A stretch of DNA of 61,227 nt from Patescibacteria group bacterium (GTDB lineage: Bacteria; Patescibacteriota; Microgenomatia; JBGSIU01): positions 1 to 61,227 of the forward strand of contig JBGSIU010000036.1 in the NCBI GenBank assembly GCA_041742375.1. The letters are read 5' to 3'. The translations under genes and the position numbers were made by a program. Positions 3,105-58,739 of the stretch are shown here, one piece after another. Every line of letters starts with the position of its first letter. Positions within the stretch are counted from its first letter, which is position 1. The notes below the pieces were generated by a model. It was not told the DNA's origin, did no database searches, and worked only from the letters and a program-made list of their open reading frames with translations.

Positions 3105-3111
3105 TTTTCCT

Positions 3112-3192
3112 GTCATCCCCGCGAAAGCGGGGATCCAGAGTCCTTATTAATTTTAGGAAGAACACTGGATCCCGGGTCAAGCCCGGGATGAC
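3112..3192. repeat. pair of inverted GTCATCC-hairpin elements
   Basis: gtcatccccgcgaaagcggggatccagag (3112..3140) and, in inverted orientation, ctggatcccgggtcaagcccgggatgac (3165..3192). Confidence 0.85.
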
Positions 3193-3231
3193 AAAAAGAG
3201 AAATCCCTTTTTGCATTTTGATTTAATTTAG

Positions 3232-4449
3232 GTGTTGAGTATTGATTTTATAAAACAAAATTTAGATTATGTAAAAGAATGTACTAAAAATAAGAGGAGA
3301 GAGGTTGATTTTGATAAACTTCTTGCACTTGATGAAGAAAAAAGAAAATTGCTCCATGAAATTGAGGAGTTACGTGCGCAGCGAAACCGTATTTCCGGAA
3401 AAGGAAAAGATCAAACCGAACAAGAAAAACAGCGCAACCGCGAAATTAAAGATAAGCTTAAAGAACTTGAGTCTCTTCTACAGACTACTGACTACAAGCT
3501 ACAAACTTTACTTTTGTCCGTCCCCAATGTCTACATTGAAGGTACGCCAATTGGCAAAGACGAAAAATCAAATGTCGAGATTCGCAAATGGGGAGAAGTG
3601 TCGCACTTTGATTTTCCAGTGAAAGATCATTTAGTGCTTGCCAAACTTAATGATTTAGTCGATTTTGAGCGAGGGAGCAAGGTTTCGGGGTTTCGCGGTT
3701 ATTTTTTGAAAAATGAAGCGGCGGCAATGCAATTTAAAATTTTGTCTTTTGCATTTAACCTTTTAATTAAAAAAGGCTACACGCCGCTTATTGCGCCAGC
3801 GCTCACAAAAGAATTTGCCTTTTTTGGCAACGGCCAATTTCCGTGGGGACGCGAGGAAGTTTATAATTTAGAAAAAGATAAACAATATTTGGCAGGAACC
3901 GCAGAAACACCGGTGACCGCATATTTTTCCGACGAAGTTTTGGAAGAAAAAGATTTACCAAAAAAGTTTGTGGCATTTTCTCCATGTTTCCGCCGCGAAG
4001 CCGGAAGTTATGGAAAAGACACGAAGGGTTTATACCGCGTCCATGAGTTTTGGAAAATTGAACAAGTAGTTTTCTGTAAAGCGGATTTAAACGAAGGATT
4101 GTCGATGTTTGATGAAATATTAAATAATTCAGAGGAAATTTTGCAGGCGTTGAAAGTTCCGTATCGCGTGATGCATCTTGCCACAGGCGAAATGGGCGAG
4201 CCGCAATTTAAAAAATATGACATTGAATCTTGGATGCCGAGCCGCGGAAGTTATGGCGAAACAATGTCTTGTTCGTTGATGACGGATTTTCAAGCCCGCA
4301 GGCTTAATATTCGCTACAAAACAAAAGACGGAAAAATAAAGCATGTGTTCACGTTGAACAACACGGCCGTGGCTTCGCCCCGCATTTTAATACCAGTAAT
4401 GGAGATTAATCAAACGAAAGAAGGGAAGATCGAATGGCCGGTTTTATAA
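3232..4449 (+). CDS. serS: seryl-tRNA synthetase
   Basis: N-terminal coiled-coil arm (LLALDEEKRKLLHEIEELRAQRN) followed by a class II core (FSPCFRREAGSYGKDTKGLYRVHEF, LNNTAVASPR). GTG start. Confidence 0.93.
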   Translation: MLSIDFIKQNLDYVKECTKNKRREVDFDKLLALDEEKRKLLHEIEELRAQRNRISGKGKDQTEQEKQRNREIKDKLKELESLLQTTDYKLQTLLLSVPNVYIEGTPIGKDEKSNVEIRKWGEVSHFDFPVKDHLVLAKLNDLVDFERGSKVSGFRGYFLKNEAAAMQFKILSFAFNLLIKKGYTPLIAPALTKEFAFFGNGQFPWGREEVYNLEKDKQYLAGTAETPVTAYFSDEVLEEKDLPKKFVAFSPCFRREAGSYGKDTKGLYRVHEFWKIEQVVFCKADLNEGLSMFDEILNNSEEILQALKVPYRVMHLATGEMGEPQFKKYDIESWMPSRGSYGETMSCSLMTDFQARRLNIRYKTKDGKIKHVFTLNNTAVASPRILIPVMEINQTKEGKIEWPVL

Positions 4450-4672
4450 AATCAAAACTCAAAAATCAAAGTTCAAAAATACAGATTAAAAATCAAAAAT
4501 ATATCTTGCGTGTCATTCCCGCCTCCGAGCGGGAATCCAGAGTTCTTAGAGCTCTTGTGGATTTTTTCATTTTTAATCTTTTATTTGTATTTTTAATTTT
4601 TGATGCTTCGACTTTGCTCAGCATCAATATTGAGCTTGTCGAATGTATTGATATTTGATTTTTGATTTTGTT
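4450..4672. repeat. composite nested hairpin region between serS and the methyltransferase gene
   Basis: Outer arms are (AAATCAA)-like at 4450..4500 and (TTGATTT)-like at 4647..4672. Inside are the GC hairpin gtcattcccgcctccgagcgggaatccagag (4512..4542) and a second hairpin, cgactttgctca...tgagcttgtcg (~4610..4642). Confidence 0.75.
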
Positions 4673-5348
4673 ACTGTTTTTTCAAAATTTTCTTCAATAT
4701 CTTTTTCCCCAACTAATCGAAACCCAAAATAGTAAATTTAGCGGGAATATTTCCGTTTACAAATTTCGCAATAAATATATTTTAAAAGCCGGCCAAGTTC
4801 ACCAAAGCGGCGGATGGGCAGACGCGCTATTTAAGCGCGTAATTTTCAAATTTCAAATTTCAAATTTCAAATTAAAACAAATTTTAATTTTGGGTCTGGC
4901 TGGCGGTACACTTGTAGAGCTTTTTACAAAAATAAATCCTAATGTAAAGATTACTGGCGTTGACATTGACCCCGTGATGGTTAACTTAGGCAATAAATAT
5001 TTTCACGTTTTAAAACGTGAAAACTTAAAGGTAATTATTGATGATGCATATTTGTTTGTGAAGAAAACAGAGAATAAGTTTGACTTGGTGTTTGTTGACA
5101 CGTTTCAAGGGGACTCAATGCCGAAAAAATTCACGGAAAAAGAACTTTTAAAAAACGTAATCCGCATGACTGATGATAAGGGATATATAATAATAAACCG
5201 TTTATATTTGCCAAAATTTAAAAAAGAGACAGACGAATATTATCAAAATCTTGACAGTTGGCAGAAAGAGATGAATTTTAAAATTAAAGATTATTATCAA
5301 AACATCGGCAATAAGGTGATTTTGCTCGCAAAACAAGGTAAAATATAA
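4662..5348 (+). CDS. spermidine-synthase-like SAM-dependent methyltransferase
   Basis: ILILGLAGGTLVE...VDIDPVMV...DLVFVDTF matches a Rossmann methyltransferase of spermidine-synthase type. The only canonical starts are TTG codons inside the upstream repeat arm. The gene contains an in-frame (TCAAATT)4 tract. Confidence 0.6.
   Translation: MILLLFFQNFLQYLFPQLIETQNSKFSGNISVYKFRNKYILKAGQVHQSGGWADALFKRVIFKFQISNFKLKQILILGLAGGTLVELFTKINPNVKITGVDIDPVMVNLGNKYFHVLKRENLKVIIDDAYLFVKKTENKFDLVFVDTFQGDSMPKKFTEKELLKNVIRMTDDKGYIIINRLYLPKFKKETDEYYQNLDSWQKEMNFKIKDYYQNIGNKVILLAKQGKI
4843..4873. repeat. (TCAAATT)4 tandem heptamer inside the methyltransferase CDS
   Basis: ttttcaaatttcaaatttcaaatttcaaatt, translated as FKFQISNFKL. 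This is the reverse complement of the AAATTTGA motif that flanks ftsE. Confidence 0.85.
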
Positions 5349-5366
5349 GAAGTTTATTTTATCTTT

Positions 5367-5393
5367 GTAGAGACGCGCGACCTCTCGTGTCTC
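5367..5393. repeat. GC-rich hairpin GTAGAGACGCG...CGTGTCTC
   Basis: The stems gagacgcg and cgtgtctc pair at 7 of 8 positions around the loop cgacctct. Located downstream of the methyltransferase stop. Confidence 0.6.
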
Positions 5394-5428
5394 ATCGTGA
5401 AGGTTAATAACGTAAAAACTGAGTTAGG

Positions 5429-5458
5429 ATACTTTAATGATTTAAATCATTAAAGTAT
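5429..5458. repeat. perfect 30-bp palindrome; candidate operator or terminator stem
   Basis: atactttaatgattt|aaatcattaaagtat, checked base by base with 15/15 pairs. It ends 17 nt upstream of the cupin TTG start. Confidence 0.9.
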
Positions 5459-5474
5459 ATGACTTCATTTTCTG

Positions 5475-5877: not shown

Positions 5878-5924
5878 CTCTGGATTCCCGCTTTTCCTCA
5901 AGAGGACTATAGCGCGGGAATGAC
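5878..5924. repeat. GTCATTCC-family hairpin element, reverse orientation, immediately upstream of secA
   Basis: ctctggattcccgc-ttttcctcaagaggactatag-cgcgggaatgac. The terminal ggaATGac creates the ORF-track ATG at 5920. Confidence 0.8.
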
Positions 5925-8544: not shown

Positions 8545-8567
8545 TCTTAAACCCGAATACAAAACAA

Positions 8568-8655
8568 GGCAACGCAGAAACACAGAATTAGGATTGAGAC
8601 ACAGAAGGGTTTTTTCTTTTCTGCGCCTCCGATTATTCTGCGTCTCTGTGTTGCC
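8568..8655. repeat. imperfect ~38-nt inverted repeat built from CACAGA/GCAGAA-like units
   Basis: ggcaacgcagaaacacagaattaggattgagacacagaa pairs with ttctgcgcctccgattattctgcgtctctgtgttgcc across a T-rich loop. It lies between the secA stop and the GxxExxY gene. Confidence 0.65.
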
Positions 8656-8784
8656 AAGAAAAGTATTCAAAGTTATACCGACAACTCGAGTTCTAATCAA
8701 TTAACCCAGCAGATCATTGGAATTGCCATCAATATTCACAAACAACTTGGTCCCGGTTTAGCCGAAAAAATTTACCAGAGAATC

Positions 8785-9051
8785 ATGTATTTGGAACTAA
8801 AAAGAACCAAGCTAAAAATTGATCGCGAGTATAAAATAACCGTCAGGTGGAATAAGTGTATTGTCGGCTACCATATTGTCGACTTCTTGATAAACGATGA
8901 ATTAATACTTGAATTAAAAGCGACCGGCGAAACTCAAGATTTGCATAAATATCAATTGTTGTCCTATTTGAAAGCGGCGGATATTCAATTAGGATTACTC
9001 CTTAATTTTGGTACGCCGGTATTAGGAATTAAAAGAGTAGTTAACAATTAA
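8785..9051 (+). CDS. GxxExxY-family protein (PD-(D/E)XK-like); family-like N-terminus continues upstream of the first ATG
   Basis: HIVDFLINDELILELKA and LLNFG resemble the GxxExxY family. The same frame is open back to 8551 and encodes LTQQIIGIAINIHKQLGPGLAEKIYQR, but has no ATG/GTG/TTG there. Confidence 0.6.
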   Translation: MYLELKRTKLKIDREYKITVRWNKCIVGYHIVDFLINDELILELKATGETQDLHKYQLLSYLKAADIQLGLLLNFGTPVLGIKRVVNN

Positions 9052-9057
9052 TAAAAT

Positions 9058-10591: not shown

Positions 10592-11842
10592 TTGACTTTG
10601 GGTTTTATTTGGGGTTTAATTAAATATACTATGTTTGGATTTAATTCGGTTTCTCCCACGGTTATGCATCTTGATATTAATTCTTGCTTTGCCAGCGTAG
10701 AGCAACTATATAATCCCGCCATCCGCGGCAAGCCAGTGGTTGTCGCCGCCTATAAAACTGATCGCGGTTGCATTTTAGCGGCATCGGCTGAAGCCAAAAA
10801 ATTGGGAGTGAAAACCGGCATGCGGGTTTTCGAAGGACGGAAATTTTGTCCGCAGTTAATCGTTCTTGAAACTGATCCGCCGAAATATCGCGAGGTTCAC
10901 AAGAAATTAAAAAATATTCTGAAAACCTACACGGAAAATCCGGTTGCCAAATCAATTGACGAGTTTGCTTTGGATCTAAACGGTTATCCGGCATTTCGTG
11001 CTGGCATGGTCAAAACCGCGCGTGAGATAAAAGCACGAATTAGAAAAGAAATTGGGGAATGTTTAACTGTTTCGATTGGCATTTCCACCAATCGCTATTT
11101 GGCAAAAGTTGCCTCGGATTTACAAAAACCAGACGGACTAGTCGAAATTAATAAAAATAATCATCAAGAAATTTTTCAAAAAATGAAGTTAATGGATTTA
11201 TGCGGGATTAAAAAAAGAAATGCAATAAGATTGCATAGCGTTGGTATTAAAAACATAGTTGACATGTATTGCTCGCCGATTTCCCGATTAAAGGCAGCGT
11301 TTAATGGGATCTGCGGCTATTATTGGTTTTTGCGGCTTCATGGTTTTGAAATTGACAGCATAAAATCAGAGCAAAAAAGTTTTGGCGCACAATATGTTCT
11401 GCCGCGCGCAACAAGCGACAAAAAAATTATCTTGCCGATCTTGCAAAAGCTCACAGAAAAAATGGGGAAAAGGTTAAGAGAGGCAGGAAAACAGGCAAAA
11501 GGCGTGCATCTCGCGGTTTTTTATGCTGACCATTCTTTTTTCCACCATGGTGAGAATTTCAGTAGCTACGTTTTTAATTCTCGTGATTTATACACGCGGG
11601 CAAAAGAAATATTTAAAAAAATAAGCATAGATTCCGGCGTGCGGGAAATCGCCGTCTCTTGTTTCAATGTGATAAAAAATGATATCTTGCAGGGTGAACT
11701 TTTTGAAAATGCGGCAAGAAAAAGTAAATTAACCGAGGCGCTGGATAAAATTAATGAAAAATTTGGCGATTATTACATTTCGCCGGCATCTTTATTTTTG
11801 GCGCCTGATGCCGTTCCCGACAGAATTGCTTTTGGAAAGTAG
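10592..11842 (+). CDS. dinB: DNA polymerase IV (Y-family)
   Basis: MHLDINSCFASVEQ, SIDEFALD and SIGISTNRYLAKVASD are present. The true start is probably ATG 10631 or 10664 rather than TTG 10592. Confidence 0.88.
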   Translation: MTLGFIWGLIKYTMFGFNSVSPTVMHLDINSCFASVEQLYNPAIRGKPVVVAAYKTDRGCILAASAEAKKLGVKTGMRVFEGRKFCPQLIVLETDPPKYREVHKKLKNILKTYTENPVAKSIDEFALDLNGYPAFRAGMVKTAREIKARIRKEIGECLTVSIGISTNRYLAKVASDLQKPDGLVEINKNNHQEIFQKMKLMDLCGIKKRNAIRLHSVGIKNIVDMYCSPISRLKAAFNGICGYYWFLRLHGFEIDSIKSEQKSFGAQYVLPRATSDKKIILPILQKLTEKMGKRLREAGKQAKGVHLAVFYADHSFFHHGENFSSYVFNSRDLYTRAKEIFKKISIDSGVREIAVSCFNVIKNDILQGELFENAARKSKLTEALDKINEKFGDYYISPASLFLAPDAVPDRIAFGK

Positions 11843-13160: not shown

Positions 13161-13892
13161 ATGTCAAGAAAAAAAACTCGAAGCTCCAAAAGAAAATTAA
13201 ATAAGAAACAAAAAAATCTCCTTGTTAAAAAGCAAGAAAATGTCCAAGGGGAAATTTCTCAAACAGAAGAACAAGAACCTCAGGTGACCGAAATTCCAAC
13301 CGCTTCTCCACGTGTTTCTTCAAAGCTTTTTTATTTTGCCGCCGTTTTTATTCTGGTTGCCGTGGCGATTTATCTTGGAGTTCAAAAATATGGCAATCAA
13401 ATTATGGTGGCTAAGGTTAATGGCCAGCCAATTTTCAAATTGACTCTGTGGCAGAAACTGGAAAAAAGATTTGGGAGCCAAATGATTGACGAGATGGTAA
13501 ACGAGGCTCTAATCCGTCAGGAAGCGGCAAAGAAAAATATTATTGTTTCTCAAAAAGACATCGATAAAAGTGTTAAAGACCTTGAGGCACGATTCAAAGG
13601 TAAGGAAGGGCTTGATCAAATGCTAGGTATGCAGGGAATGACTCGCGACGATTTGATTAACCAAATAAATTTGCAGTTAACGATTGAAAAAATCATCGGG
13701 GGGCCGGTAAAAGTGTCGGACAAAGAGATAAATGATGAATATGAAAAAAATCAGGCAAATTATGGTGAAGAATTGACAGCTGCGGTGAAGACGCAAATTA
13801 AAGACCAATTAACTCAGCAAAAGACAAGTAAAGCTTTTTCCGATTGGTTTGCCAAAGTCAAAAAGAGCGCGAAGATAAATAAATACCTTTAA
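13161..13892 (+). CDS. membrane-anchored SurA-N-like chaperone domain protein
   Basis: Lys-rich N-terminus, one TM segment, then a SurA/PrsA-type helical chaperone region (VNGQPI...EALIRQEA). No parvulin PPIase core was recognised. Confidence 0.55.
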   Translation: MSRKKTRSSKRKLNKKQKNLLVKKQENVQGEISQTEEQEPQVTEIPTASPRVSSKLFYFAAVFILVAVAIYLGVQKYGNQIMVAKVNGQPIFKLTLWQKLEKRFGSQMIDEMVNEALIRQEAAKKNIIVSQKDIDKSVKDLEARFKGKEGLDQMLGMQGMTRDDLINQINLQLTIEKIIGGPVKVSDKEINDEYEKNQANYGEELTAAVKTQIKDQLTQQKTSKAFSDWFAKVKKSAKINKYL

Positions 13893-13893
13893 G

Positions 13894-15015
13894 TTACTTC
13901 GCATACTTTCCGAGCTTTGAAAGAAGAACGGCGCCGGAGCCAAGGATGACAATTAAAACCTTAGAGATAAGCCCGAGATAGGGAATGAGTGAGACAATTT
14001 GCAGAATCGTCAGCCCCAAAAGAAGCGGCAAAAATTTGCTTTCCCCATCACTTAAAATCCGGCTGCCGATCAAAAGACCCACCACCACGCGGCTCACAAA
14101 AATCAAAAGAACAAGTAAAAATATAAATAAAAACGCGAGAGGAATGCCGATAATTGTTAAACCTAAAATTATTAACCCAAAAGGGATAAGGCAGTAAAAA
14201 ACTAGGCCAAAAATGAAAGACGCCAATGGTTTTTCTGCCAAGAATTTATTAATATTGCTGAATTGTTTTGGAAAAACAAAAACTAAAAGAAAACCAATGA
14301 TCAACGAGCACAGGTAATTTATCCACGAAATAAGAGATACTAATTTCAATCCAAGCTGTTTAAGATTCGTTGTTGGCAGATGCCCATTTCTTTTAACGAA
14401 AACCACATTTCCTTTAACTTGAGGTTTTAATGATGCGATCTGATTTACTGCTTGATATTCTAAATTTCCGCCAACTAAAAAATTATTACCAAAAGATATA
14501 TTATTCGAGATAAGTTTCGCATTTTGACCAGTTTTACCGTTGAAAAAAATGTTTGCAGCCGTGATTCGTGCTTCTCCATCGATTTTTCCCAGAATATTGG
14601 TGTTTCTTGAAAATTCAACAAGGTTTCCTTGGATTACAGCGTTTTTTTCAACCTCAGTTTGTCCGCCAAAAATTAAAGCATTCTTGCCAATATGCCCGGA
14701 TATAGAAACCGTTCCGCCGGCAAGTCTCACATTATCAGAAACATTGCCGTTAAACGTGACAGTGACACCTGTGGCGATGAGATCACCGTTAATATTGCCA
14801 TTAACAATAATGTTTTCCCCAATAAGATATGCTTCGCCATTCACCGTGCCGTCAATAGTGATTGTTCCTCCAGTTTTAAAATATAAATTATTGACAATTT
14901 CATTCTCTGGAAGATAAACCGTCTTCTGTTCTTTCGCATAAGCGAATCTAGTCGTAAAAAAGAAAAGAAATAAGGTTATAATAAGAAAAAGAAAACGCTT
15001 CATAAGTTTTGACAC
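13894..15015 (-). CDS. exported beta-helix repeat protein (bactofilin/DUF583-like repeats) with C-terminal polytopic membrane domain
   Basis: Signal peptide ending in AYA, repetitive G-x-I/V-x-G-N/D strands (VNGNINGDLIATGVTVTFNGNVSDNVRLAGGTVSISG), then about 5 TM helices. Confidence 0.5.
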   Translation of the reverse strand: MSKLMKRFLFLIITLFLFFFTTRFAYAKEQKTVYLPENEIVNNLYFKTGGTITIDGTVNGEAYLIGENIIVNGNINGDLIATGVTVTFNGNVSDNVRLAGGTVSISGHIGKNALIFGGQTEVEKNAVIQGNLVEFSRNTNILGKIDGEARITAANIFFNGKTGQNAKLISNNISFGNNFLVGGNLEYQAVNQIASLKPQVKGNVVFVKRNGHLPTTNLKQLGLKLVSLISWINYLCSLIIGFLLVFVFPKQFSNINKFLAEKPLASFIFGLVFYCLIPFGLIILGLTIIGIPLAFLFIFLLVLLIFVSRVVVGLLIGSRILSDGESKFLPLLLGLTILQIVSLIPYLGLISKVLIVILGSGAVLLSKLGKYAK

Positions 15016-16060: not shown

Positions 16061-16075
16061 TAAAATAAAGAATAA

Positions 16076-16163
16076 CGATTGTTCCATTGTTCGATTGTTC
16101 CATTGCAAAAATTTTTATTTTTTTTAGCAATTGAGCAATTGAACAATTGAGTAATGAAACAAT
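16076..16163. repeat. AT-rich long hairpin with (ATTGTTC)/(CAATTGA)-type repeat arms
   Basis: Arms 16078..16106 and 16127..16155 give 29 paired positions: 23 Watson-Crick, 4 G-U and 2 mismatches, checked by hand. The loop is A/T only. The right arm ends at the ATG of 16164. Confidence 0.85.
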
Positions 16164-16592
16164 ATGGATAACGATCAAGTTATTAAACCGATGGAAGAAC
16201 CAAAACTAAGATCAGGGAATAAGAGTGGAATCTTGTTGATAGTTATTTTTTTTGCTGTGGTTTTTGGCGTGGCGAGCGGTTTTGGAATCGTAAAATTTAA
16301 AGGAGGTAATGGCATGGTTGGCGAAAAAATTAAAACTTCAAAAGAAGTTGGGATTAAAGACGAAAAGACATTTTCCGATTCGGCGGAAGGTAAACTGGTC
16401 AAAGGTGGAATTGAAGGGGAGGGAACACATCACTTGGAACGCGCCGGGGGCCCGAGCCAAAATGTTTATTTAAACTCATCAGTTGTTGATCTCAATCAAT
16501 TTGTTGGAAAAAAAGTTAAAGTGTATGGTCAAACAAACGCAGCAAAAACCGCCGGATGGCTGATGGATGTCGGACGGGTGGAAATAAAATAA
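16164..16592 (+). CDS. hypothetical membrane-anchored protein
   Basis: 142 aa with one N-terminal TM segment and a small extracytoplasmic domain. The ATG directly abuts the right arm of the upstream hairpin. Confidence 0.45.
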   Translation: MDNDQVIKPMEEPKLRSGNKSGILLIVIFFAVVFGVASGFGIVKFKGGNGMVGEKIKTSKEVGIKDEKTFSDSAEGKLVKGGIEGEGTHHLERAGGPSQNVYLNSSVVDLNQFVGKKVKVYGQTNAAKTAGWLMDVGRVEIK

Positions 16593-16620
16593 TTTAAAAT
16601 TTAAAATTTGAAATTAATTT
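16591..16620. repeat. AAATTTGA/AATTTAAA tandem tract upstream of ftsE
   Basis: aatttaaaatttaaaatttgaaattaattt, the same motif as the left arm downstream of ftsE. Confidence 0.6.
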
Positions 16621-16631
16621 AGTTGCCTGCC

Positions 16632-17309
16632 ATGATCAAATTTGAAGACGTTATTAAAAAATTTGGAACAAATACGGCTCTTAGCGGAGTCAATTTTGAG
16701 ATACAAGATAAAGAATTTGTATTTTTAGTTGGCCGTTCCGGTTGCGGAAAAACGACACTTTTTAAACTCCTAAATCGCGAATATCTTCCAACATCAGGAA
16801 AAATTTTTTTCAATGAATTGAACATCCCAAAAATATCTTCAGGTAAATTATGGCAGCACCGCCGCAAACTTGGGATTATCTTTCAAGACATGAAGCTTTT
16901 ATATGACCGTACTGCGTTTGAAAATATTGCTCTTGCGCTTAATATAAGAGGAGAAAAACAAGAAAATGTTAAGAAAAAAGTCAAGGAGATTATGGAACTT
17001 GTGGGTTTGAAAGGAAAAGATAATTTTTTTCCGAAAGAACTTTCAGGCGGCGAAGTGCAACGTGTGACAATTGCACGGGCGATAATCGGCAACCCGGAAG
17101 TGATTTTGGCTGATGAGCCAACTGCTGATCTTGATCAATCAACCGGATGGGAGATTATCCAGCTTCTAAAAATGTTAAACGACGCCGGAAAAACAGTGGT
17201 TATTGCCACTCATAATTTTGATATCGTTAATTCGCTGAAAAAACGGGTGATTCTTTTGGAAAAAGGAGCTGTGATTAAAGATGAGATTGGAAGAAAGATT
17301 AAAATTTGA
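16632..17309 (+). CDS. ftsE: cell-division ABC ATPase FtsE
   Basis: MIKFEDVIKKFG start, Walker A GRSGCGKTT, signature LSGGEVQR, Walker B ILADEPT. The ORF track starts at TTG 16623. Confidence 0.9.
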   Translation: MIKFEDVIKKFGTNTALSGVNFEIQDKEFVFLVGRSGCGKTTLFKLLNREYLPTSGKIFFNELNIPKISSGKLWQHRRKLGIIFQDMKLLYDRTAFENIALALNIRGEKQENVKKKVKEIMELVGLKGKDNFFPKELSGGEVQRVTIARAIIGNPEVILADEPTADLDQSTGWEIIQLLKMLNDAGKTVVIATHNFDIVNSLKKRVILLEKGAVIKDEIGRKIKI

Positions 17310-17410
17310 AATTTAAAATTTGAAATTTAAAATAAAAATAGGAATTTTTAATAATTAAAATTATTATTTTCTTTTATTCATTTCAAATTTCGAATTTCAA
17401 ATTAAAAATT
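17301..17410. repeat. AT-rich long hairpin bridging the ftsE stop and the ftsX start
   Basis: The left arm aaaatttgaaatttaaaatttgaaatttaaaat contains the ftsE TGA (17307..17309). The right arm tttcaaatttcgaatttcaaattaaaaatt runs into the ftsX TTG (17409). About 21 of 25 aligned positions are complementary. Confidence 0.8.
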
Positions 17411-18269
17411 GTTTTCTATTGCTTGGTCTCATATCCGTCGTTATCCTTATCAAGCCGTATCGGTGATTGCCGTTTTGGCACTTACATTTTTTGTGATTTC
17501 TCGGGTGACTTTGATTCTCATTGTATCCGAATTAACCCTTCGTAATCTTGAAGGAAAACCACAGATAACCCTTTTTCTTAAAGATAAAATTGAAGAGCGC
17601 GATATTCAATCTATTACCAAAGAATTAAAAAATAACCCCAAAGTTTTAAAAGTGAAATATGTTTCAAAAGAAGATGCTTTAAAAATATATCGTGAGCAAA
17701 ACAAGAAAGACCCGTTACTTCTTGAAATGGTAACCGCCAATATCTTGCCCGCGTCTATTGAAGCTTCGACTATCAAAATTGAAGATTTAAGTTCTCTTGC
17801 AAAATATTATAAAAATAATCCGGCAGTTGAAGAAATTTCCTTTCAGCAAGATGTAGTTCGGAATTTGTCGCGTTGGGCAAAAGCAGTTCGAGAAATTGGG
17901 CTGGAGCACATCGGATCACATCTTCTTTTATCTCTTTTTGTAATTATTCTTTTTATCAGCGCCAAAATTGCTGTTAAAAAGCAAGAGATTGAAATTTTGC
18001 AACTTTTGGGCGCCAGCCGCAGTTATATCCGCACACCTTTTATTTTAGAGGGGATGTTTTATGGATTTTTGAGTAGTTTTCTTGCCACTGCAGCTTTTCT
18101 CGCCGTCATTTTATCAGGGCATGATCCGTTAAATATTATTTTTAACGATCTAAGCATAGGCGTGTTTGAACCTTCAGTTTATGCCCTCTATTTTGGCGTT
18201 ACCATCGGTTTGGGATTAATTCTAGGTTGGTTATCAAGTTTGATTGCTGTTTTCCGTTTTCTAAAATGA
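17409..18269 (+). CDS. ftsX: cell-division permease-like protein FtsX
   Basis: TM1, an extracellular loop domain, then three C-terminal TM helices in an FtsX-type layout, directly after ftsE. The TTG start lies inside the hairpin arm. Confidence 0.8.
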   Translation: MFSIAWSHIRRYPYQAVSVIAVLALTFFVISRVTLILIVSELTLRNLEGKPQITLFLKDKIEERDIQSITKELKNNPKVLKVKYVSKEDALKIYREQNKKDPLLLEMVTANILPASIEASTIKIEDLSSLAKYYKNNPAVEEISFQQDVVRNLSRWAKAVREIGLEHIGSHLLLSLFVIILFISAKIAVKKQEIEILQLLGASRSYIRTPFILEGMFYGFLSSFLATAAFLAVILSGHDPLNIIFNDLSIGVFEPSVYALYFGVTIGLGLILGWLSSLIAVFRFLK

Positions 18270-23565: not shown

Positions 23566-23829
23566 ATGAACAAAAAGACAACTCTTATTATTTCGAACTA
23601 TCTTTTTCTCTTAATTATCCTTTTTGCCGGATTTTGGAGTATTTTATTTTTTCGACGCGATAAATTTATTCAAATATTTTCAGCAGGTTTAATGTGTTTT
23701 GGATACACTATGTGGGGAATTTTACACCATGTCTCTTTAAAGAACTTGCACCTTCGAATTGTGATAGAATACATCGTGTTTGCGATGATTGTGTTCAGTA
23801 TATTGACAATTCTTATCGCTCGATCATGA
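23566..23829 (+). CDS. small hypothetical membrane protein
   Basis: 87 aa with three hydrophobic helices, starting 2 nt after the previous stop. Confidence 0.4.
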   Translation: MNKKTTLIISNYLFLLIILFAGFWSILFFRRDKFIQIFSAGLMCFGYTMWGILHHVSLKNLHLRIVIEYIVFAMIVFSILTILIARS

Positions 23830-23834
23830 AGTAT

Positions 23835-23905
23835 AAATCAAAATGCAAAATCAAAAATATTTTTAATATTTAATTTGTGTTTTTGATCTTTGATATTTGA
23901 TTTTT
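23835..23905. repeat. AT-rich hairpin with (AAATCAA)/(TTGATTT)-type arms upstream of rmlA
   Basis: aaatcaaaatgcaaaatcaaaaatat pairs imperfectly with gtgtttttgatctttgatatttgattttt. Confidence 0.7.
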
Positions 23906-23913
23906 AATTTGTT

Positions 23914-24630
23914 ATGAAGGGGATTATTCTCGCTGGTGGTTTAGGTACTCGACTCTACCCTTTGACCTATGCCACAAATAAACATTTGCTTCCAATTTAT
24001 GACCAGCCAATGATTTTTTATCCAATTAAAACACTGGTTGATGCTGGGATAACATCAATTGCAATTGTAACTGGTGGTCCCCATGCCGGTCATTTCATGC
24101 GCGTCTTAAGGAATGGAAAAGCGCTTGGGATTAAACACTTGGAATTTTTATATCAAGAAAACGAAGGCGGCATTGCTGATGCTTTAAGACTCTGTGAAGA
24201 TTTTGCTGATAATGATAACATTGCGGTAATTTTGGGAGATAACACGACTGACATGGATATCTCTCCTCATGTAAAAAATTTTAAAACCGGAGCAATGGTT
24301 TTTTTAAAAAAAGTACCAGATCCTGAAAGATTTGGAGTGGCGGCTTTTTCTGGCGAGAAAATTGTTCATATTGATGAAAAATCAAAAAATCCAAAAAGTG
24401 ACTATGCAGTGACAGGTCTTTATATTTATGACAACAAAGTGTTTAGCTATATTCACAAAATAAAGCCTTCTGGTCGCGGGGAAATGGAAATTACAGATGT
24501 AAACAATTGCTATATCGACAATGGCAATAGCTTGCAATATACGAAGATGAAACATTATTGGTCAGATTGCGGAACTTTTGAGAGTTTATATGCTGCCAGC
24601 AAATTCTGGCACGACAAAAAGAAAATTTAA
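23914..24630 (+). CDS. rmlA: sugar-1-phosphate nucleotidyltransferase (short RmlA-like, probable glucose-1-phosphate thymidylyltransferase)
   Basis: MKGIILAGGLGTRLYPLTYATNKHLLPIYDQPMIFYPI is the RmlA-type N-terminus. Confidence 0.8.
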   Translation: MKGIILAGGLGTRLYPLTYATNKHLLPIYDQPMIFYPIKTLVDAGITSIAIVTGGPHAGHFMRVLRNGKALGIKHLEFLYQENEGGIADALRLCEDFADNDNIAVILGDNTTDMDISPHVKNFKTGAMVFLKKVPDPERFGVAAFSGEKIVHIDEKSKNPKSDYAVTGLYIYDNKVFSYIHKIKPSGRGEMEITDVNNCYIDNGNSLQYTKMKHYWSDCGTFESLYAASKFWHDKKKI

Positions 24631-24683
24631 AATTTTTAATTTAAAATTTGAAATGAAAACTAAATTTGAAAATTATAAAAATT

Positions 24684-24723
24684 GAAAATTCATTGAAAAT
24701 TAAAAATTGAAAATTGAAAATTG
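24684..24723. repeat. direct tandem (AAAATTG/GAAAATT)n tract, no complementary arm seen
   Basis: aattgaaaattcattgaaaattaaaaattgaaaattgaaaattg. The last unit supplies the TTG start of 24721. Confidence 0.7.
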
Positions 24724-25158
24724 GGACAATCGTTAATTGATAAGGTAAAAATCGAGGAATGCAAGAAAGTGCCAACTCGTGATTTAAGAGGTCAGGAGAA
24801 TGGTTTCCTTCAAGAAATGTTTGTCAAGAATGGAAAGACGCTTTGCTATCTTTCTGCAGCTCGCCCCGGGGCTTTTAAGGGTTATCATTTGCACAAAGTG
24901 CGCGCCGCCCGCTATGTTTGCGTGAAAGGCATAATGAAAGTGATTTTATATTATGATGGGAAGCGCGAAGAACACATTTTGTCCGTCGAAAATCGCAAAA
25001 GATTATACATTCCCCCAAATGTGCCAACTGGGCTTGAAAATATCGGAACTGAGGATGCCTGGCTCATTAATCTTCCTGATCCTCCATATGACCCAAATTT
25101 AAAAGATGAACAGGTGGATTATACACTTGAAGAAGTGGAAAATAATTTTATTAAATAA
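24721..25158 (+). CDS. RmlC-like cupin (NDP-4-keto-6-deoxy-sugar epimerase/isomerase family)
   Basis: 145 aa with GYHLHKVRAARYVCVKG and a cupin strand pattern, sitting among rml genes. The exact activity is not assignable. The TTG start lies inside a tandem repeat. Confidence 0.5.
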   Translation: MGQSLIDKVKIEECKKVPTRDLRGQENGFLQEMFVKNGKTLCYLSAARPGAFKGYHLHKVRAARYVCVKGIMKVILYYDGKREEHILSVENRKRLYIPPNVPTGLENIGTEDAWLINLPDPPYDPNLKDEQVDYTLEEVENNFIK

Positions 25159-25722: not shown

Positions 25723-25750
25723 AAAGGGAAAATTATAGTAAAATTAATAT

Positions 25751-26749: not shown

Positions 26750-26763
26750 GCACCTCCTCTTTT

Positions 26764-26843
26764 GTCATCCCAGATGAGGCTAACGACCTCAGTCTGGGAT
26801 CCAGAACACTGAGCCTGGATTCCCGCTCGGAGGCGGGAATGAC
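26764..26843. repeat. pair of inverted GTCATCC/GTCATTCC hairpin elements between rmlB and rmlD
   Basis: gtcatcccaga-tgaggctaacgacctca-gtctgggatccag is followed by the inverted copy ctggattcccgc-tcggag-gcgggaatgac. The last ATG is the rmlD start. Confidence 0.85.
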
Positions 26844-27753
26844 AAGGAGTTGTTGTTTTAGAAATTTATATATAAATATTTTAGCAACTGGTCTTTCTGG
26901 TTTAGTCGGCACCAGAATTAAGGAATTACTTCAAGATAAATATTCTTTCACCGATCTTTCTTTTTCAACAGGTGTTGATATCACAGATGAAAAAAAAGTA
27001 AGCGAAGCTTTTTCGAAAAGTGATGCCCAATGGGTTTTACACCTGGCGGCCTTGGCCGATGTTGATAAATGCGAGACTGAAAAAGAATTGGCTTATAAAA
27101 TTAATGTTTTAGGAACGAGAAATATTGCCCAGGCATGCAAAAAATTCAATAAAAAAATAATTCATATTTCAACTGATTTTGTTTTTTCTGGAGATGAATC
27201 GTCTGAATATTTTGAAGATAGTAAAAGAAAGTCATGTAATTATTATGCCGAAACAAAGATATTGGCGGAAGACGAGGTTATGAAAACTCTAGACAAAAAA
27301 AATTGGATAATCCTGCGAATCGCGCATCCATATAAAAAATTAGTTGAAGATGAACCAAAAAAATCGTTTTTCCAACGAATGTATGAGGTGTTAAAGAATG
27401 ATCAAGAATTAAAAGCGATTGAAGATTTTTACTCTCATCCCACATTTATTGACGATATTGCAAATTCCATAGATAAGCTGATAAAATTGAACTTTTCTGG
27501 TATATATCATTGTGTTGGAGATTCTTTTTTAAGCGGAGCGGAAGAAGCGGAAATAATTTGCGAAGTTTTTAATTTTGATAAAAGCCTGATTAAAAAGATA
27601 AAACTTAATAAGTTTTTTGAAGGGCGGGCAAAAAGGCCGCATCAGTTGAACTTAAATAATGATAAAATAAAAAAAGCAACGGGAATAAAATTGCATTCAT
27701 TTCGGGAAGGGCTGTTGCAGATTAGAGAGCAAATGAAAAAAATTAATTTCTAA
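26839..27753 (+). CDS. rmlD: dTDP-4-dehydrorhamnose reductase-like SDR
   Basis: ILATGLSGLVG, HLAALADVDKCE, HISTDFVFSG and YAETKILAE match the RmlD pattern. The only canonical start is the ATG inside the upstream GC hairpin. Confidence 0.75.
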   Translation: MTRSCCFRNLYINILATGLSGLVGTRIKELLQDKYSFTDLSFSTGVDITDEKKVSEAFSKSDAQWVLHLAALADVDKCETEKELAYKINVLGTRNIAQACKKFNKKIIHISTDFVFSGDESSEYFEDSKRKSCNYYAETKILAEDEVMKTLDKKNWIILRIAHPYKKLVEDEPKKSFFQRMYEVLKNDQELKAIEDFYSHPTFIDDIANSIDKLIKLNFSGIYHCVGDSFLSGAEEAEIICEVFNFDKSLIKKIKLNKFFEGRAKRPHQLNLNNDKIKKATGIKLHSFREGLLQIREQMKKINF

Positions 27754-27853
27754 TTTCTAATTTTTAATTTCTAAATAATGATTTAATTATTTAATTTTTT
27801 AACATTAAGTCATTAAAAATTGATTAAAAATTTAAAATTAAAAATTAAAAATT
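27742..27853. repeat. AT-rich hairpin with (AATTTCT)/(AAAAATT)-type arms bridging the rmlD stop and the ugd start
   Basis: The left arm aattaatttctaatttctaatttttaatttctaaat contains the rmlD TAA. The right arm cattaaaaattgattaaaaatttaaaattaaaaattaaaaatt ends 4 nt before the ugd ATG. Pairing is imperfect. Confidence 0.65.
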
Positions 27854-27857
27854 CGCG

Positions 27858-29150
27858 ATGATAATCGCGGTTATAGGTCATGGCTATGTTGGTTTAGTTT
27901 CGGCGGCGGTTTTTGCCGATCTTGGCAATACTGTTTGGTGTGTTGGCCGAGACCCTCAAAAAATTGCAAGATTAAACCAGGGAGAAACGCTTTTTTATGA
28001 GCCAGGTCTTTCCGAACTGGTAAAACGTAATCTCGCAGCCAATCGACTTAATTTCACACTTGATTATGCCCAAGCGGTAAAAGATGCTAGGGTGGTTTTT
28101 ATTTGCGTGGGGACACCGTCTTCGGAAACAGGGCATGCTGATTTAACCCAGGTTTTAAAAGTTGCGGAAAAAATTGGAGAATCAATTAAAAATAATGCGG
28201 TCGTGGTATGTAAAAGTACCGTACCTGTCGGAACTAATCGCAGGGTAGCTGAAATCATAAATTCTGTAAAAAAGAAAAATATTAAATTCTTTAGCGCTTC
28301 CTGTCCGGAATTCTTAAGAGAAGGTACGGCTCTTTCCGACACTCTCCATCCTGACCGAATCGTAATTGGGGCAGATTCAGAAGAGGCTTTTAAAGTTCTT
28401 ATTGAAGCACATAAGCCGATTGATGGCAAGCTGGTTTTAACTTCGATTGAAACCGCGGAGATGATTAAATACACGGCGAATTCATTTCTGGCGACGAAAA
28501 TTTCTTTTGCCAATGCCATTGCTGAGCTTTGTGAAAAAGTCGGGGCGGATGTGGAAAAAGTCATGGAAGGAATAGGGCTTGATAGGCGAATTGGCAGAAG
28601 ATTTTTATATCCCGGAGTAGGTTATGGCGGCAGTTGTTTCCCAAAAGATGTAAAAGCTTTAATTGCAATTGCAGAGGTGCACGGGTATAACTTTGAACTT
28701 TTAAAAGAAGTTGAAGCGATTAATAAACAAGCAGTTGCCAATTTTAATAATAAAATTAAAAAACACCTTAAAAGTCTGAAAGGAAAAAAAATAGCCGTTC
28801 TTGGGCTTGCATTTAAACCCGACACTGACGATATGAGAGAAGCTCCCTCGATTAAAATTATTAATTTCCTCCAAAAAGAAGGAGCGGAAATTTTTGCATA
28901 TGATCCAATTGCAAAGGAAACCGCTAGTCGCGTTCTCTCAAATACTCATTTTTGTGATGATATTTTTAACTGTGTGGAAAATAAGGATGCAGCAATTTTC
29001 ATCACAGAATGGAATGAGTTTAAACAGTTAGATTTGTTAGCTTTAAAGAAAAAATTAAAAACGCCGCTTGTTTTTGATGGGCGAAATATTTATGATCCGG
29101 AAAAAATGAGAAAAATGGGGTTTACTTATTATTCGGTTGGAAGGAAATAA
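27858..29150 (+). CDS. ugd: UDP-glucose 6-dehydrogenase
   Basis: IAVIGHGYVGLV, the catalytic GYGGSCFPKDV, and GLAFKPDTDDMREAP. Confidence 0.9.
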   Translation: MIIAVIGHGYVGLVSAAVFADLGNTVWCVGRDPQKIARLNQGETLFYEPGLSELVKRNLAANRLNFTLDYAQAVKDARVVFICVGTPSSETGHADLTQVLKVAEKIGESIKNNAVVVCKSTVPVGTNRRVAEIINSVKKKNIKFFSASCPEFLREGTALSDTLHPDRIVIGADSEEAFKVLIEAHKPIDGKLVLTSIETAEMIKYTANSFLATKISFANAIAELCEKVGADVEKVMEGIGLDRRIGRRFLYPGVGYGGSCFPKDVKALIAIAEVHGYNFELLKEVEAINKQAVANFNNKIKKHLKSLKGKKIAVLGLAFKPDTDDMREAPSIKIINFLQKEGAEIFAYDPIAKETASRVLSNTHFCDDIFNCVENKDAAIFITEWNEFKQLDLLALKKKLKTPLVFDGRNIYDPEKMRKMGFTYYSVGRK

Positions 29151-29153
29151 TAT

Positions 29154-29269
29154 GTAAAAAAATCAAAATGCAAAAATCAAAAGTCAAAATGACTGTTTAA
29201 AATGCAAAATTAAAGACGTTTTTTATTTTACATTGTCATTTTTCATTTTGAGTTTTACATTTTTAATTT
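29154..29269. repeat. AT-rich hairpin with (AAAATCA/AAAATGC)-type arms between ugd and the Gmd/Rmd-like gene
   Basis: gtaaaaaaatcaaaatgcaaaaatcaaaagtcaaaatgac pairs imperfectly with ttttattttacattgtcatttttcattttgagttttacatttttaattt. Confidence 0.6.
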
Positions 29270-29273
29270 ATTC

Positions 29274-30230
29274 ATGAAAAAGAAGGCATTAATAACCGGG
29301 ATTACCGGTTTTGTCGGTAGTCATCTTGCCGAGTTTCTTTTAAGCGAAGGGCTGGAAGTTTCTGGTACTAGCCGTTGGCGAAGCAAAATGGATAATGTGG
29401 AAAAGATAAAAGATCAAATACATCTTCACGAAGCCGATCTTCTTGATGCGCATTCGATCTACCAAATTATCGATGAAATTAAACCAGATTTTATTTTTCA
29501 TTTAGCTGCTCAATCATACGTTGTTTCAAGTTGGCAGTCGCCGGCAAACACAATTGAAGTTAACACAACAGGTACGATAAATCTTTTCGAGGCGGTAAGA
29601 AAAACGGAACTTAAATGCCCGGTTCAGATCGCTTGCTCTTCAGAAGAATACGGAAAAGTTTATCCAAATGAAGTTCCGATCAAAGAGACAAATCCTTTGC
29701 GCCCGCTTTCGCCATACGCTGTTTCAAAGCTAGCAATGGATTATTTAGGTTATCAGTATCATGAAAGTTACGGGATTAATATCATAAGGACAAGAGGATT
29801 TAACCACACTGGTCCTCGTCGCGGTGAAGTTTTTGCTGAAAGTACGTTTGCTAAACAAATTGCCGAAATTGAAAAAAAGAAGAAAGAACCAGTGGTTTTC
29901 GTTGGAAATCTAGAAGCAAAACGTGATTATACTGACGTTCGCGATATGGTTAAAGCATATTATTTGGCTGCGCAAAAATGTGAACCAGGGGAAGTATATA
30001 ACATTTGCACCGGCCGTGCATGGTCGATAGGCGATGTGCTTAAGCATCTTATTAAACTTTCAAAGGTTAAAATTCAAGTTAAAAAAGATCCCGCGCGTAT
30101 GCGGCCATCCGATGTACCGATACTTTTGGGAGACAATTCAAAATTTGTCGCCAAAACAGGTTGGAAACCAGAAATTCCGTTTGAAAAAACACTTGAAGAC
30201 TTATTAAATTATTGGCGAGAAAAAGTATAA
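29274..30230 (+). CDS. Gmd/Rmd-family SDR (GDP-mannose 4,6-dehydratase or GDP-4-keto-6-deoxymannose reductase-like)
   Basis: ITGITGFVGSHLAEFLL, SPYAVSKL, FNHTGPRRGEVF, GNLEAKRDYTDVRD and LLGDNSKFVAKTGWKPEI. At 318 aa it is the short form. Confidence 0.72.
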   Translation: MKKKALITGITGFVGSHLAEFLLSEGLEVSGTSRWRSKMDNVEKIKDQIHLHEADLLDAHSIYQIIDEIKPDFIFHLAAQSYVVSSWQSPANTIEVNTTGTINLFEAVRKTELKCPVQIACSSEEYGKVYPNEVPIKETNPLRPLSPYAVSKLAMDYLGYQYHESYGINIIRTRGFNHTGPRRGEVFAESTFAKQIAEIEKKKKEPVVFVGNLEAKRDYTDVRDMVKAYYLAAQKCEPGEVYNICTGRAWSIGDVLKHLIKLSKVKIQVKKDPARMRPSDVPILLGDNSKFVAKTGWKPEIPFEKTLEDLLNYWREKV

Positions 30231-35220: not shown

Positions 35221-35228
35221 GTTCTATT

Positions 35229-35255
35229 GTCATTCCGGCGAAAGCAGGAATCTAT
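35229..35255. repeat. GTCATTCC-family hairpin element
   Basis: gtcattccggc-gaaa-gcaggaatctat, with one stem mismatch. It lies between the GT2 stop (35220) and the GT39-like start (35283). Confidence 0.75.
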
Positions 35256-39511: not shown

Positions 39512-39515
39512 AGTT

Positions 39516-39590
39516 CATTGCTTCATTGTTTTATTGTTTTATTGCTATTTTTGTTCTTAGCAATGGAGCAATTGAGCAATGGAGCAATCG
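39516..39590. repeat. AT-rich long hairpin with (CATTGTT)/(GCAATGG)-type arms in a divergent spacer
   Basis: 31 paired positions (39517..39547 with 39558..39588): 24 Watson-Crick, 6 U-G wobbles and 1 mismatch when read as plus-strand RNA, checked by hand. Confidence 0.85.
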
Positions 39591-39617
39591 TGTAGTTTGC
39601 GCTATAATTATACCTAA

Positions 39618-47845: not shown

Positions 47846-47872
47846 ATAGATTCCGGCCTGCGCCGGAATGAC
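47846..47872. repeat. GTCATTCC-family hairpin element, reverse orientation
   Basis: atagattccggc-ctgc-gccggaatgac. It is preceded by the 10-bp inverted repeat gaatctatat/atatagattc (47821..47853). Confidence 0.8.
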
Positions 47873-47883
47873 GGAAGGAAAAA

Positions 47884-56915: not shown

Positions 56916-56945
56916 AGGTATAATAATTATACTGCGACATTTACA

Positions 56946-58676: not shown

Positions 58677-58739
58677 ATTATTTAAACATATTGTATCAAG
58701 AATTTAATCGATGGTGATAAAATCTTAATATACAAGCAA

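Follow-up and report, generated by a model that had tools for sequence, protein, structure and literature searches.

Hairpins with tandem heptamer arms in the intergenic gaps of a Patescibacteria contig behave like interspersed palindromic repeats

We analyzed a contig of 61,227 nucleotides (nt) from a Microgenomates-type bacterium of the Patescibacteria, or Candidate Phyla Radiation (CPR; contig JBGSIU010000036.1, referred to at its full length as the window), in which long imperfect hairpins with arms built from tandem 7- to 8-nt units occupy many of the spacers between genes. As judged by sequence comparison, whole hairpins, inner stem as well as arms, were shown to recur at different gene junctions as families, and at any one junction they were present, absent, decayed, or swapped for another family among relatives. 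The elements behave like interspersed palindromic repeats of a little-studied kind, not like a conserved regulatory signal. With moderate confidence, we interpret them as self-complementary heptamer minisatellites similar to repetitive extragenic palindromic (REP) sequences, which form families, are shaped by slippage, and have been added to ordinary tiny gaps. Roughly one third of the scarce noncoding DNA in the window genome consists of these elements, and they split genes that were ancestrally overlapping and translationally coupled, such as ftsE and ftsX.

Tandem-armed hairpins in the spacers

The window is ~36% G+C and 95% coding (4.9% noncoding). Relatives of its FtsE and Ugd proteins are annotated as Shapiro-, Levyi-, Gottesman-, and Woesebacteria. 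All gaps between open reading frames (ORFs) that measured 25 nt or more were listed, and spacers were folded on both strands against 200 dinucleotide-preserving shuffles, with z given per strand. Tandem arrays were called with Tandem Repeats Finder (TRF), and inverted arms were called by a separate inverted-repeat search. A preliminary description of this DNA had proposed long hairpins with tandem-unit arms in seven spacers. Folding, TRF, and inverted repeats confirmed six of the seven, with 7- to 8-nt arrays present in both arms, and two hairpins were detected beyond that list (24621-24723 and 39517-39588; Table 1). The comparison with dinucleotide shuffles came out as the description had expected: most spacers folded far better than their controls (z of -4 to -8), with weaker values on the + strand at 23825-23916 and 29151-29276. 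For eight or nine of ten spacer arrays, a complementary partner was located inside the same gap. The gene names used in the description were supported by a Pfam scan of 50 window ORFs, each of at least 100 amino acids (aa): Ham1/RdgB, SerS, methyltransferase, class-I release factor, FtsE, FtsX, RmlA, an FdtA-like protein, RmlD, Ugd, and an epimerase/decarboxylase.

The seventh spacer, rdgB-serS, holds a genuine array but only part of the hairpin architecture. Its (ATCAAAT)x6.9 array (3042-3089, 97% identity) is mostly unpaired, the right arm near 3195-3228 amounts to ~2 units, and the two GC-rich palindromes between them dominate the fold. This array encodes the C terminus of the RdgB/Ham1 ORF, which has 240 residues; the Pfam domain reaches no farther than residue 222, and the heptamers make a 20-residue tail beyond it. 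The prfB hairpin is real, although its right arm, said to end at the ATG, stops 8 nt short. As had been noted, left arms do include the ftsE TGA and the rmlD TAA.

Hairpin sequences were identical in independent assemblies, so the elements are not assembly artifacts. Near-identical assemblies (L001, L121-124, L035/36, L038/39, and L125/126 among the relatives compared) agreed at 99.98 to 100%, hairpins included.

Arrays with periods of 6 to 9 nt were concentrated in the noncoding 4.9% of the window (13 of 31, p = 7e-10). The most common TRF period was 7 (24.5 per 100 kb), followed by 12 (14.7) and 8 (13.1); period-7 arrays were ~8-fold less frequent (2.9 per 100 kb) in 312 kb of non-CPR control loci. 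The combination of a strong fold with a tandem array was found in none of >100 control spacers. Both the dominance of heptamers and the intergenic enrichment that characterize long simple-sequence repeats (LSSRs; the class of Mrazek 2007) were therefore found here, as was the arrangement of two like-unit arrays, convergent and close together, that marks the Xanthomonas subtype considered below.

Families and turnover of the hairpins

The hairpins at 16078-16155 and 39517-39588 (family b) are 83% identical and have wobble positions in common (local-alignment z of 16.8 versus shuffles), and the AAATCAA/TTGATTT type (family a) occurs at four junctions (z of 5 to 20). Two (GTAGTCA)n-armed hairpins of relatives, from ftsE-ftsX in L120 and from rmlD-ugd in L037, are 82% identical through arms and inner stem. 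One family fills all four spacers of L071, and L075 and L087 have another in common. At least three unrelated unit families were present within one genome. The elements are thus interspersed extragenic imperfect palindromes that fall into sequence families, as are REPs and bacterial interspersed mosaic elements (BIMEs). Because relatives have GTAGTCA and ACGAATCT units, AT-richness, part of the original definition, is not essential to the architecture.

The same architecture was found in phages. A scan of viral contigs with the pattern (GTAGTCN)2GTAG...CTACNGACTACNNACTAC returned three contigs of 54 to 60% G+C. One of these, L129 (IMG/VR uncultivated virus genome [UViG] 3300047160_017344), is a 60% G+C phage contig encoding a major head protein and a head-tail adaptor. 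Its six heptamer-armed hairpins fall into three families (GTAGTCA, GAGGGGC, and GTCATTR); they occupy gaps of the structural operon and flank the major head gene. Four of the six directly separate a stop codon from the start that follows, and the other two are in tandem upstream of the major head gene. Since these hairpins belong to an unrelated GC-rich phage, the architecture is neither AT-specific nor CPR-specific.

Recent perfect duplications in single arms, heptamer arrays within ORFs, and the ~8-fold excess of period-7 arrays point to slippage. The left arm at ftsE-ftsX is a perfect duplication that spans the ftsE stop; the array at rdgB has no matching right arm; and at rmlD-ugd in L037 a perfect (GTAGTCA)x3 left arm faces a diverged right arm. 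Mismatches between arms are periodic, recurring at the same unit position. Inside the methyltransferase ORF, a perfect (TTTCAAA)x4.3 array (4844-4873) is translated as FKFQISNFKLK just before the S-adenosylmethionine (SAM)-binding motif. Heptamer arrays were also observed in membrane-protein ORFs, (ATTTTTT)x4.6 and (ATTATTA)x5, at 37169-37200 and 49825-49859. A gene for a Y-family (DinB/IMS) translesion polymerase at 10592-11842 is a possible contributor to slippage-type mutation.

Could the hairpins be a purely local mutational by-product, made by slippage in place and inverted duplication (template switching), with neither copying between loci nor any effect on expression? The arrays inside ORFs, the polymerase gene, the great diversity of units over loci and genomes, and the origin of the ftsE-ftsX left arm as a perfect copy of the native ftsE 3' end would all fit. 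However, paralogous copies at unrelated junctions are 82 to 83% identical in arms, wobble positions, and inner stems; families are genome-specific; and inverted pairing is the rule for these arrays, compared with 1 of 170 in Beggiatoa (PMC4679880). We therefore regard this explanation as improbable.

Orthologous junctions were compared among relatives; a scan of representative genomes with FtsE had returned only relatives at ≤50% identity, and a ugd scan of metagenomes gave matches at ≤63% identity. At ftsE-ftsX, the window has a hairpin of AAATTTGA units, L120 (FtsX 84% identical) has one of GTAGTCN units behind an FtsE of equal C-terminal length, and L125/L126 (FtsX 56%) have ACGAATCT/ATTCGTA units. 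In L121-124 (FtsX 67%), the gap is just 10 nt and contains no hairpin. Since ftsE and ftsX overlap by 1 to 8 nt in eight of nine more distant CPR relatives, the overlap is ancestral and the hairpin was added later to a gene pair of the classic coupled kind. At rmlD-ugd, unrelated hairpins occupy the window, L035, and L037; L034 has a weak one, and the gap in L038 measures 5 nt. The gap orthologous to rmlA-fdtA measures 1 nt in L034 and 5 nt in L035. At ugd-uxs, L037 and L038 have homologous copies, and that of L034 is decayed, with a z that falls short of -3. Because they are missing at ftsE-ftsX in L121-124 and at rmlD-ugd in L038, the hairpins are dispensable. The preliminary description had treated tracts that vary freely between close strains as the sign of mere microsatellites. 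The outcome was mixed: tract length did not vary at 100% identity, but turnover was complete at 56 to 84% protein identity.

Several observations weigh against reading the elements as slippage-shaped, spreading minisatellites. Each family has only 2 to 4 copies in 61 kb. Pfam detected no mobilizing enzyme among the 50 window ORFs, and no target-site duplication was visible flanking the two family-b copies. Pairs of strains at 100% identity had no variation in unit number, so slippage is not fast. Despite complete sequence turnover, the ugd-uxs junction was occupied in five of five relatives with DNA, and the junction of prfB with the following hypothetical gene (prfB-hyp) was occupied in three of three; selection for a hairpin at these two sites would also explain such persistence. 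Finally, in 17 of 24 CPR hairpins the better fold belongs to the sense strand (71 versus 50 G-U pairs), which hints at RNA-level constraint. The G>C skew of the window predicts part of this excess, however, and 10 phage hairpins of like architecture have no strand bias.

Table 1. Hairpins, arrays, and GC-rich palindromes in the window and in viral contigs
Position	Location	Element and arms	Folded interval, z (+ / -)	Evidence and remarks
3042-3228	rdgB-serS	Array (ATCAAAT)x6.9 and short right arm	3030-3235, -5.3 / -6.9	TRF, folding; z driven by two GC-rich palindromes
4446-4672	serS to methyltransferase	Composite nested element; outer arms 4448-4469 / 4648-4669, inner arms 4459-4500 / 4563-4604	4440-4675, -6.3 / -6.4	Inverted repeats, TRF; GC-rich palindrome in loop; extra hairpin 4604-4647
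16078-16155	prfB to 142-aa ORF	Hairpin, family b; left (ATTGTTCC)x3.5 at 16078-16105, right (AGCAATTG)x3.8 at 16126-16155	16061-16166, -6.4 / -4.6	32 pairs (21 A-U, 7 G-C, 4 G-U); begins 17 nt past prfB stop
16591-16615	Before ftsE	Direct array (AATTTAA)x3.6	-0.3	TRF; no excess folding; complementary partner absent from own spacer; unit family common to ftsE-ftsX left arm
17299-17410 (paired 17303-17403)	ftsE-ftsX	Hairpin; left 14-mer TTAAAATTTGAAAT x2.5 (100% identity), right (ATTTCAA)x3.4 ending at ftsX TTG	17295-17415, -4.3 / -4.8	Inverted repeat, TRF; copy 1 of left arm holds last ftsE codons and TGA (17307-17309)
23835-23903	87-aa ORF (23566-23829) to rmlA	Hairpin, family a; AAATCA / TTGATTT units	23825-23916, -2.1 / -3.3	
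24621-24723	rmlA-fdtA	Array (GAAAATT)x15 and complementary 5' part	24615-24725, -3.2	Inverted repeat, TRF
27743-27848	rmlD-ugd	Hairpin; (TAATTTC)x4.4 vs (ATTAAAA)x4.4	27740-27860, -5.3 / -4.9	rmlD TAA in left arm
29156-29272	ugd to UDP-glucuronate decarboxylase-like gene (uxs)	Hairpin, family a; AAAAATC/AAAATGC vs TTTTACA/TTTTTCA	29151-29276, -2.7 / -5.0	
39517-39588	Divergent spacer	Hairpin, family b copy 2; (TTCATTGC)x4.1 vs (AGCAATGG)x3.8	39512-39617, -7.9 / -2.5	TATAAT after hairpin, 9 nt ahead of + strand gene start
3111-3140	rdgB-serS	GC-rich palindrome		
3165-3193	rdgB-serS	GC-rich palindrome		
4511-4542	serS to methyltransferase	GC-rich palindrome		In loop of 4446-4672 element
~5880-5919		GC-rich palindrome		Approximate
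26763-26805		GC-rich palindrome		
26815-26843		GC-rich palindrome		Supplies rmlD ATG
~35228-35252		GC-rich palindrome		Approximate
~47850-47875		GC-rich palindrome		Approximate
L129 4469-4557	Phage contig	Heptamer-armed hairpin		
L129 4640-4718	Phage contig	Heptamer-armed hairpin		
L129 6092-6162	Phage contig	Heptamer-armed hairpin		Gene end 6086, next start 6170
L129 6600-6687	Phage contig	Heptamer-armed hairpin		
L129 9147-9229	Phage contig	Heptamer-armed hairpin		
L129 11564-11639	Phage contig	Heptamer-armed hairpin		Gene end 11564, next start 11655
L130 2355-2447	Viral contig	GTAGTCN-type hairpin		
L130 4205-4311	Viral contig	GTAGTCN-type hairpin		
L131 4774-4838	Viral contig	GTAGTCN-type hairpin		
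L131 5651-5717	Viral contig	GTAGTCN-type hairpin		

Other palindromes were also observed in the window. A second, GC-rich family of extragenic palindromes (consensus TGTCATYCC(C)GC...GCGGGRATCCAGA) has copies in either orientation, many of them placed within loops of AT-rich hairpins, and its core contains GGGAATC, the Xanthomonas heptamer. Related GC palindromes are present in relatives: CCTGCCTGCCGGCAGGCAGG in L060 and L071, and GTCATTCTGA...GAATC in L058 and L060. The spacer at 5349-5474 (z -3.7) has a third kind of intergenic hairpin, consisting of two simple nontandem palindromes, GAGACGCGCGACCTCTCGTGTCTC and a near-perfect, AT-rich one of 56 nt (5416-5471). Two stretches counted as spacers contain small ORFs. 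One, 8545-9057, includes an 88-aa ORF (8785-9051; its true length is probably greater, from a non-ATG start) and, ahead of it, a GC-rich hairpin at ~8570-8650; the other includes the 87-aa membrane ORF upstream of rmlA, where L034/L125 have a gene call of 86 aa in the same place.

Stop-to-start geometry and possible action of the elements

Co-directional gaps free of elements have a median length of 7 nt, and hairpin-bearing gaps measure 90 to 212 nt; a gap listed at 349 nt shrinks to 84 nt once the 87-aa ORF that it includes is taken into account. Outside the stem, the sequence left in each occupied gap totals -9 to 25 nt. An element of 80 to 100 nt added to a gap of ~7 nt must run almost from stop to start, and the span was thus shown to be a by-product of a palindrome of that size in a tiny gap of a 95%-coding genome. 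On the upstream side, the stop lies inside the stem in three cases (ftsE-ftsX, rmlD-ugd, and rmlA-fdtA) and 5 to 17 nt upstream of it in three others (prfB-hyp, ugd-uxs, and orf87-rmlA, the last named for the 87-aa ORF), a variation that is inconsistent with one designed layout. The distance from stem end to start is more uniform (-2 to 10 nt). The elements are not confined to same-strand gaps, since the hairpin at 39517-39588 is located in a divergent spacer. Between convergent gene pairs, which overlap or abut, neither a hairpin nor a terminator is present (38033-38062, 55224-55232, and 13892-13894); hairpins accumulate between co-directional genes, not convergent ones. No Shine-Dalgarno-like sequence was visible in the spacers, and TATAAT-like hexamers occur 5 to 10 nt upstream of several starts (39603-39617, 56916-56945, 58720-58739, and 25740-25750), which together suggest that leaderless or Shine-Dalgarno-independent initiation is frequent.

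The preliminary description had suggested that this layout could be a functional device that brings stop and start side by side. Such a selected intercistronic RNA device would have the terminating ribosome melt the stem base and so unmask, or reinitiate at, the downstream cistron. It might restore the coupling lost with the gene overlap, or it might be a dedicated RNase III or stabilizer site that sets cistron stoichiometry, as known for intercistronic stem-loops in Clostridium cellulolyticum (PMC4423207). The three stops in stem bases, the narrow range of stem-to-start distances, the missing Shine-Dalgarno-like sequence in hairpin gaps, and the persistent occupancy of ugd-uxs and prfB-hyp across relatives at 56 to 84% identity are consistent with it, as are the mild sense-strand bias and the phage copies flanking the major head gene. 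Against it, close relatives have the same junctions without a hairpin, arms homogenize internally with periodic mismatches and expand without a match, phage copies lack strand bias, and a likely -10 box lies downstream of one element, which occupies a divergent spacer. In addition, the stem begins 5 to 17 nt past the stop at three junctions, and 14 to 17 nt is at or beyond the reach of a terminating ribosome's footprint. All variants taken jointly, we consider the device unlikely. The REP-like part of the earlier proposal, interspersed extragenic palindromes within operons, holds; the stop-start device is unsupported as stated, given 7-nt gaps that explain the span, inconsistent geometry, and dispensability.

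Copies of the AATTTRA array flank ftsE in direct orientation (16591-16615 and 17299-17333), and the right arm at 17380-17410 is complementary to both; long-range pairing around the whole ftsE cistron is formally possible.

A DNA-level role, in which the units bind a nucleoid, regulatory, or gyrase-type protein or make promoters and the palindrome acts as a cruciform, appears very unlikely. REP/BIME elements bind gyrase and integration host factor (IHF), TTGA occurs in many units, and one element lies in a divergent promoter region. A promoter-like TTGAAA-N16-TAAAAT, formed from TTGAAAT/TTAAAAT units, was detected within the ftsE-ftsX left arm, with similar sites in the arrays at 16579-16636 and 24648-24721. 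However, promoter-like sites overall were not significantly above shuffles (61 versus 49 +/- 8), and the presence of at least three unrelated families in one genome, together with GC-rich units elsewhere (GTAGTCA and GAGGGGC), argues against a single sequence-specific binder.

Intrinsic terminators or attenuators of an unusual long A-U type are the least probable explanation, one to which we give very little credence. In five or six elements the left arm is rich in A and the right arm in T, as in bidirectional terminators, and TTTTT follows one phage copy. Nevertheless, a terminator scan placed none in hairpin spacers, no T run follows the stems ending at 16155, 17403, or 27848, the elements lie between genes of one pathway or complex (ftsEX and rml-ugd), and convergent gene ends, as described above, overlap without any hairpin. 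Searches for known RNAs likewise gave no candidates: no tRNA or tmRNA was found, and Rfam returned no match at the gathering threshold and only sub-threshold miRNA-precursor-like matches on 16077-16161, which reflect the generic shape of a long hairpin.

Returning to the minisatellite interpretation, we envisage inverted pairs of short arrays of 7- to 8-nt (sometimes 9-nt) units, of the heptamer LSSR or short tandemly repeated repetitive (STRR) type, behaving like REP/BIME or MITEs (miniature inverted-repeat transposable elements). They were added to ~7-nt gaps or to formerly overlapping gene ends, and between relatives they are gained, lost, decayed, or replaced. Arm length would change through replication slippage of the unit, in keeping with published heptanucleotide-slippage work, and copies would spread by some copy mechanism. 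If transcribed, an element would form a mostly A-U duplex of 25 to 45 bp that buries the spacer. From general knowledge of RNase III and from REP and selective-processing stem-loops (PMC4423207), such a duplex would be expected to serve as an RNase III substrate and a barrier to 3' exonucleases, with REP-like or selective-processing effects on the cistrons at either side. Elements whose stem base contains the stop may keep translation coupled by unmasking. These RNA effects would probably be side effects or weak modulators, not the reason for conservation.

If the elements are neutral or selfish, even 1-Mb symbiont-type genomes sustain turnover of palindromic minisatellites, and annotators should be warned, since the arrays create gene tails, stops, and starts. 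If they are active as RNA, they would offer a cheap, sequence-independent tuning of operon expression, and their occurrence in CPR bacteria, phages, and Xanthomonas would unite STRRs, heptamer LSSRs, and inverted GGGAATC arrays as one phenomenon. A bolder version, in which they form a general functional class of intercistronic RNA in these three groups, with multiregister "slippery zipper" arms that tolerate indels and serve segmental mRNA stability or coupling, spread by a dedicated copy mechanism, strikes us as doubtful.

Comparison with known systems

We found no literature report of such elements in CPR bacteria. Even so, the architecture, for which the preliminary description knew of no described class, has precedents: inverted heptamer-array pairs are known from Xanthomonas (PMC4692102) and intergenic heptamer arrays abutting starts are known from Beggiatoaceae and cyanobacteria (PMC4679880). 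Several other classes were considered and rejected. The stems, A-U-rich, 25 to 45 bp long, and mostly without a following T run, do not resemble Rho-independent terminators, in line with the negative scan. MITEs in the strict sense were rejected on the lack of a duplication flanking the two family-b copies and of a transposase in the window. Integron attC sites were rejected as well: no RYYYAAC...GTTRRRY core pair was present in any hairpin spacer, the flanking genes are housekeeping genes, and no integrase was found. Tandem interspaced guide RNA (TIGR) arrays (features as in PMC12045711) and CRISPR arrays, which have regular units (36 nt in TIGR) separated by variable spacers beside a tas (Nop-domain) or cas gene, do not fit 7- to 8-nt units without spacers. 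Domains of REP-associated tyrosine transposases (RAYTs; Y1 transposase), other transposases, integrases, Nop, and Cas were all absent from the 50 window ORFs scanned with Pfam.

The elements resemble REP/BIME sequences (REPINs) in being interspersed extragenic imperfect palindromes, often within operons between co-directional genes, with genome-specific families gained and lost between relatives. REPs, which have known stabilizing effects on mRNA 3' ends, are 20 to 40 nt long with a conserved consensus and a 5' GTAG/CGTC tag (PMC3733652). The window elements, in contrast, are 70 to 110 nt long and lack a GTAG/CGTC end; GTAG is present only in the L120/L037 family, inside every unit. REPs also reach hundreds of copies and are linked to RAYTs, whereas the window elements have internally tandem-repetitive arms and stems of 25 to 45 bp, and no RAYT was seen among the 50 window ORFs.

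Phage T7 RNase III sites are long hairpins between cistrons. In the cip-cel operon of C. cellulolyticum, intercistronic stem-loops set subunit stoichiometry via selective RNA processing and stabilization (PMC4423207). The window elements are similar in placing long hairpins between cistrons of one operon, and by analogy such processing is the most plausible way in which transcribed copies would act. The cip-cel and T7 sites, however, are individually conserved, experimentally mapped, and free of tandem-unit arms.

Cyanobacterial STRR heptamers are reported to go back to Mazel et al. in 1990, and Jackman and Mulligan in 1995 reportedly called nif intergenic regions "highly variable but structured." TAACTGA arrays in Beggiatoaceae, cyanobacteria, and Bacteroidetes end 1 nt before starts and supply upstream stops (MacGregor, PMC4679880), and according to work cited there, heptanucleotides are the most common long simple sequence repeats of prokaryotes, attributed to polymerase slippage. 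(TTTTGAA)3-type arrays near starts in Nostoc have modest and unresolved regulatory effects (bioRxiv 10.1101/2022.06.06.494920). The window arrays share with these direct repeats the 7-nt units in 2 to 6 or more copies, an end a few nucleotides before starts, an occasional role in supplying the upstream stop, and the lack of a Shine-Dalgarno sequence; for the direct repeats, a role in translation or RNA binding (S1, Csp, or CsrA) has been suggested but not shown. The difference is one of pairing: arrays in Beggiatoa and Nostoc are direct (with "only a few" inverted in Nostoc), whereas window arrays nearly always have a complementary array and so form a long hairpin.

The Xanthomonas arrays offer the remaining comparison. 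X. campestris and X. axonopodis have ~185 GGGAATC heptamer arrays per genome, 89 to 93% of them intergenic and mostly between co-directional ORFs, with a mean distance of 28 nt from the upstream ORF (Rehm et al. 2015, PMC4692102). Of these, 70 to 75 convergent pairs per genome are able to form a stem-loop or cruciform; pairs are not conserved at the same genes between species, and their function is unknown (PMC4692102). Intergenic inverted heptamer-array pairs, mostly in co-directional gaps and not conserved at the species level, are thus common to both systems. In Xanthomonas, each genome has just one unit family, which is G-rich and has been examined as a G-quadruplex motif (PMC4692102), whereas the window has several unrelated, mostly A/T-rich families with both 7- and 8-nt units that fill their gaps end to end. 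The elements are best regarded as inverted heptamer-array palindromes in a variant found in CPR bacteria (and phage).

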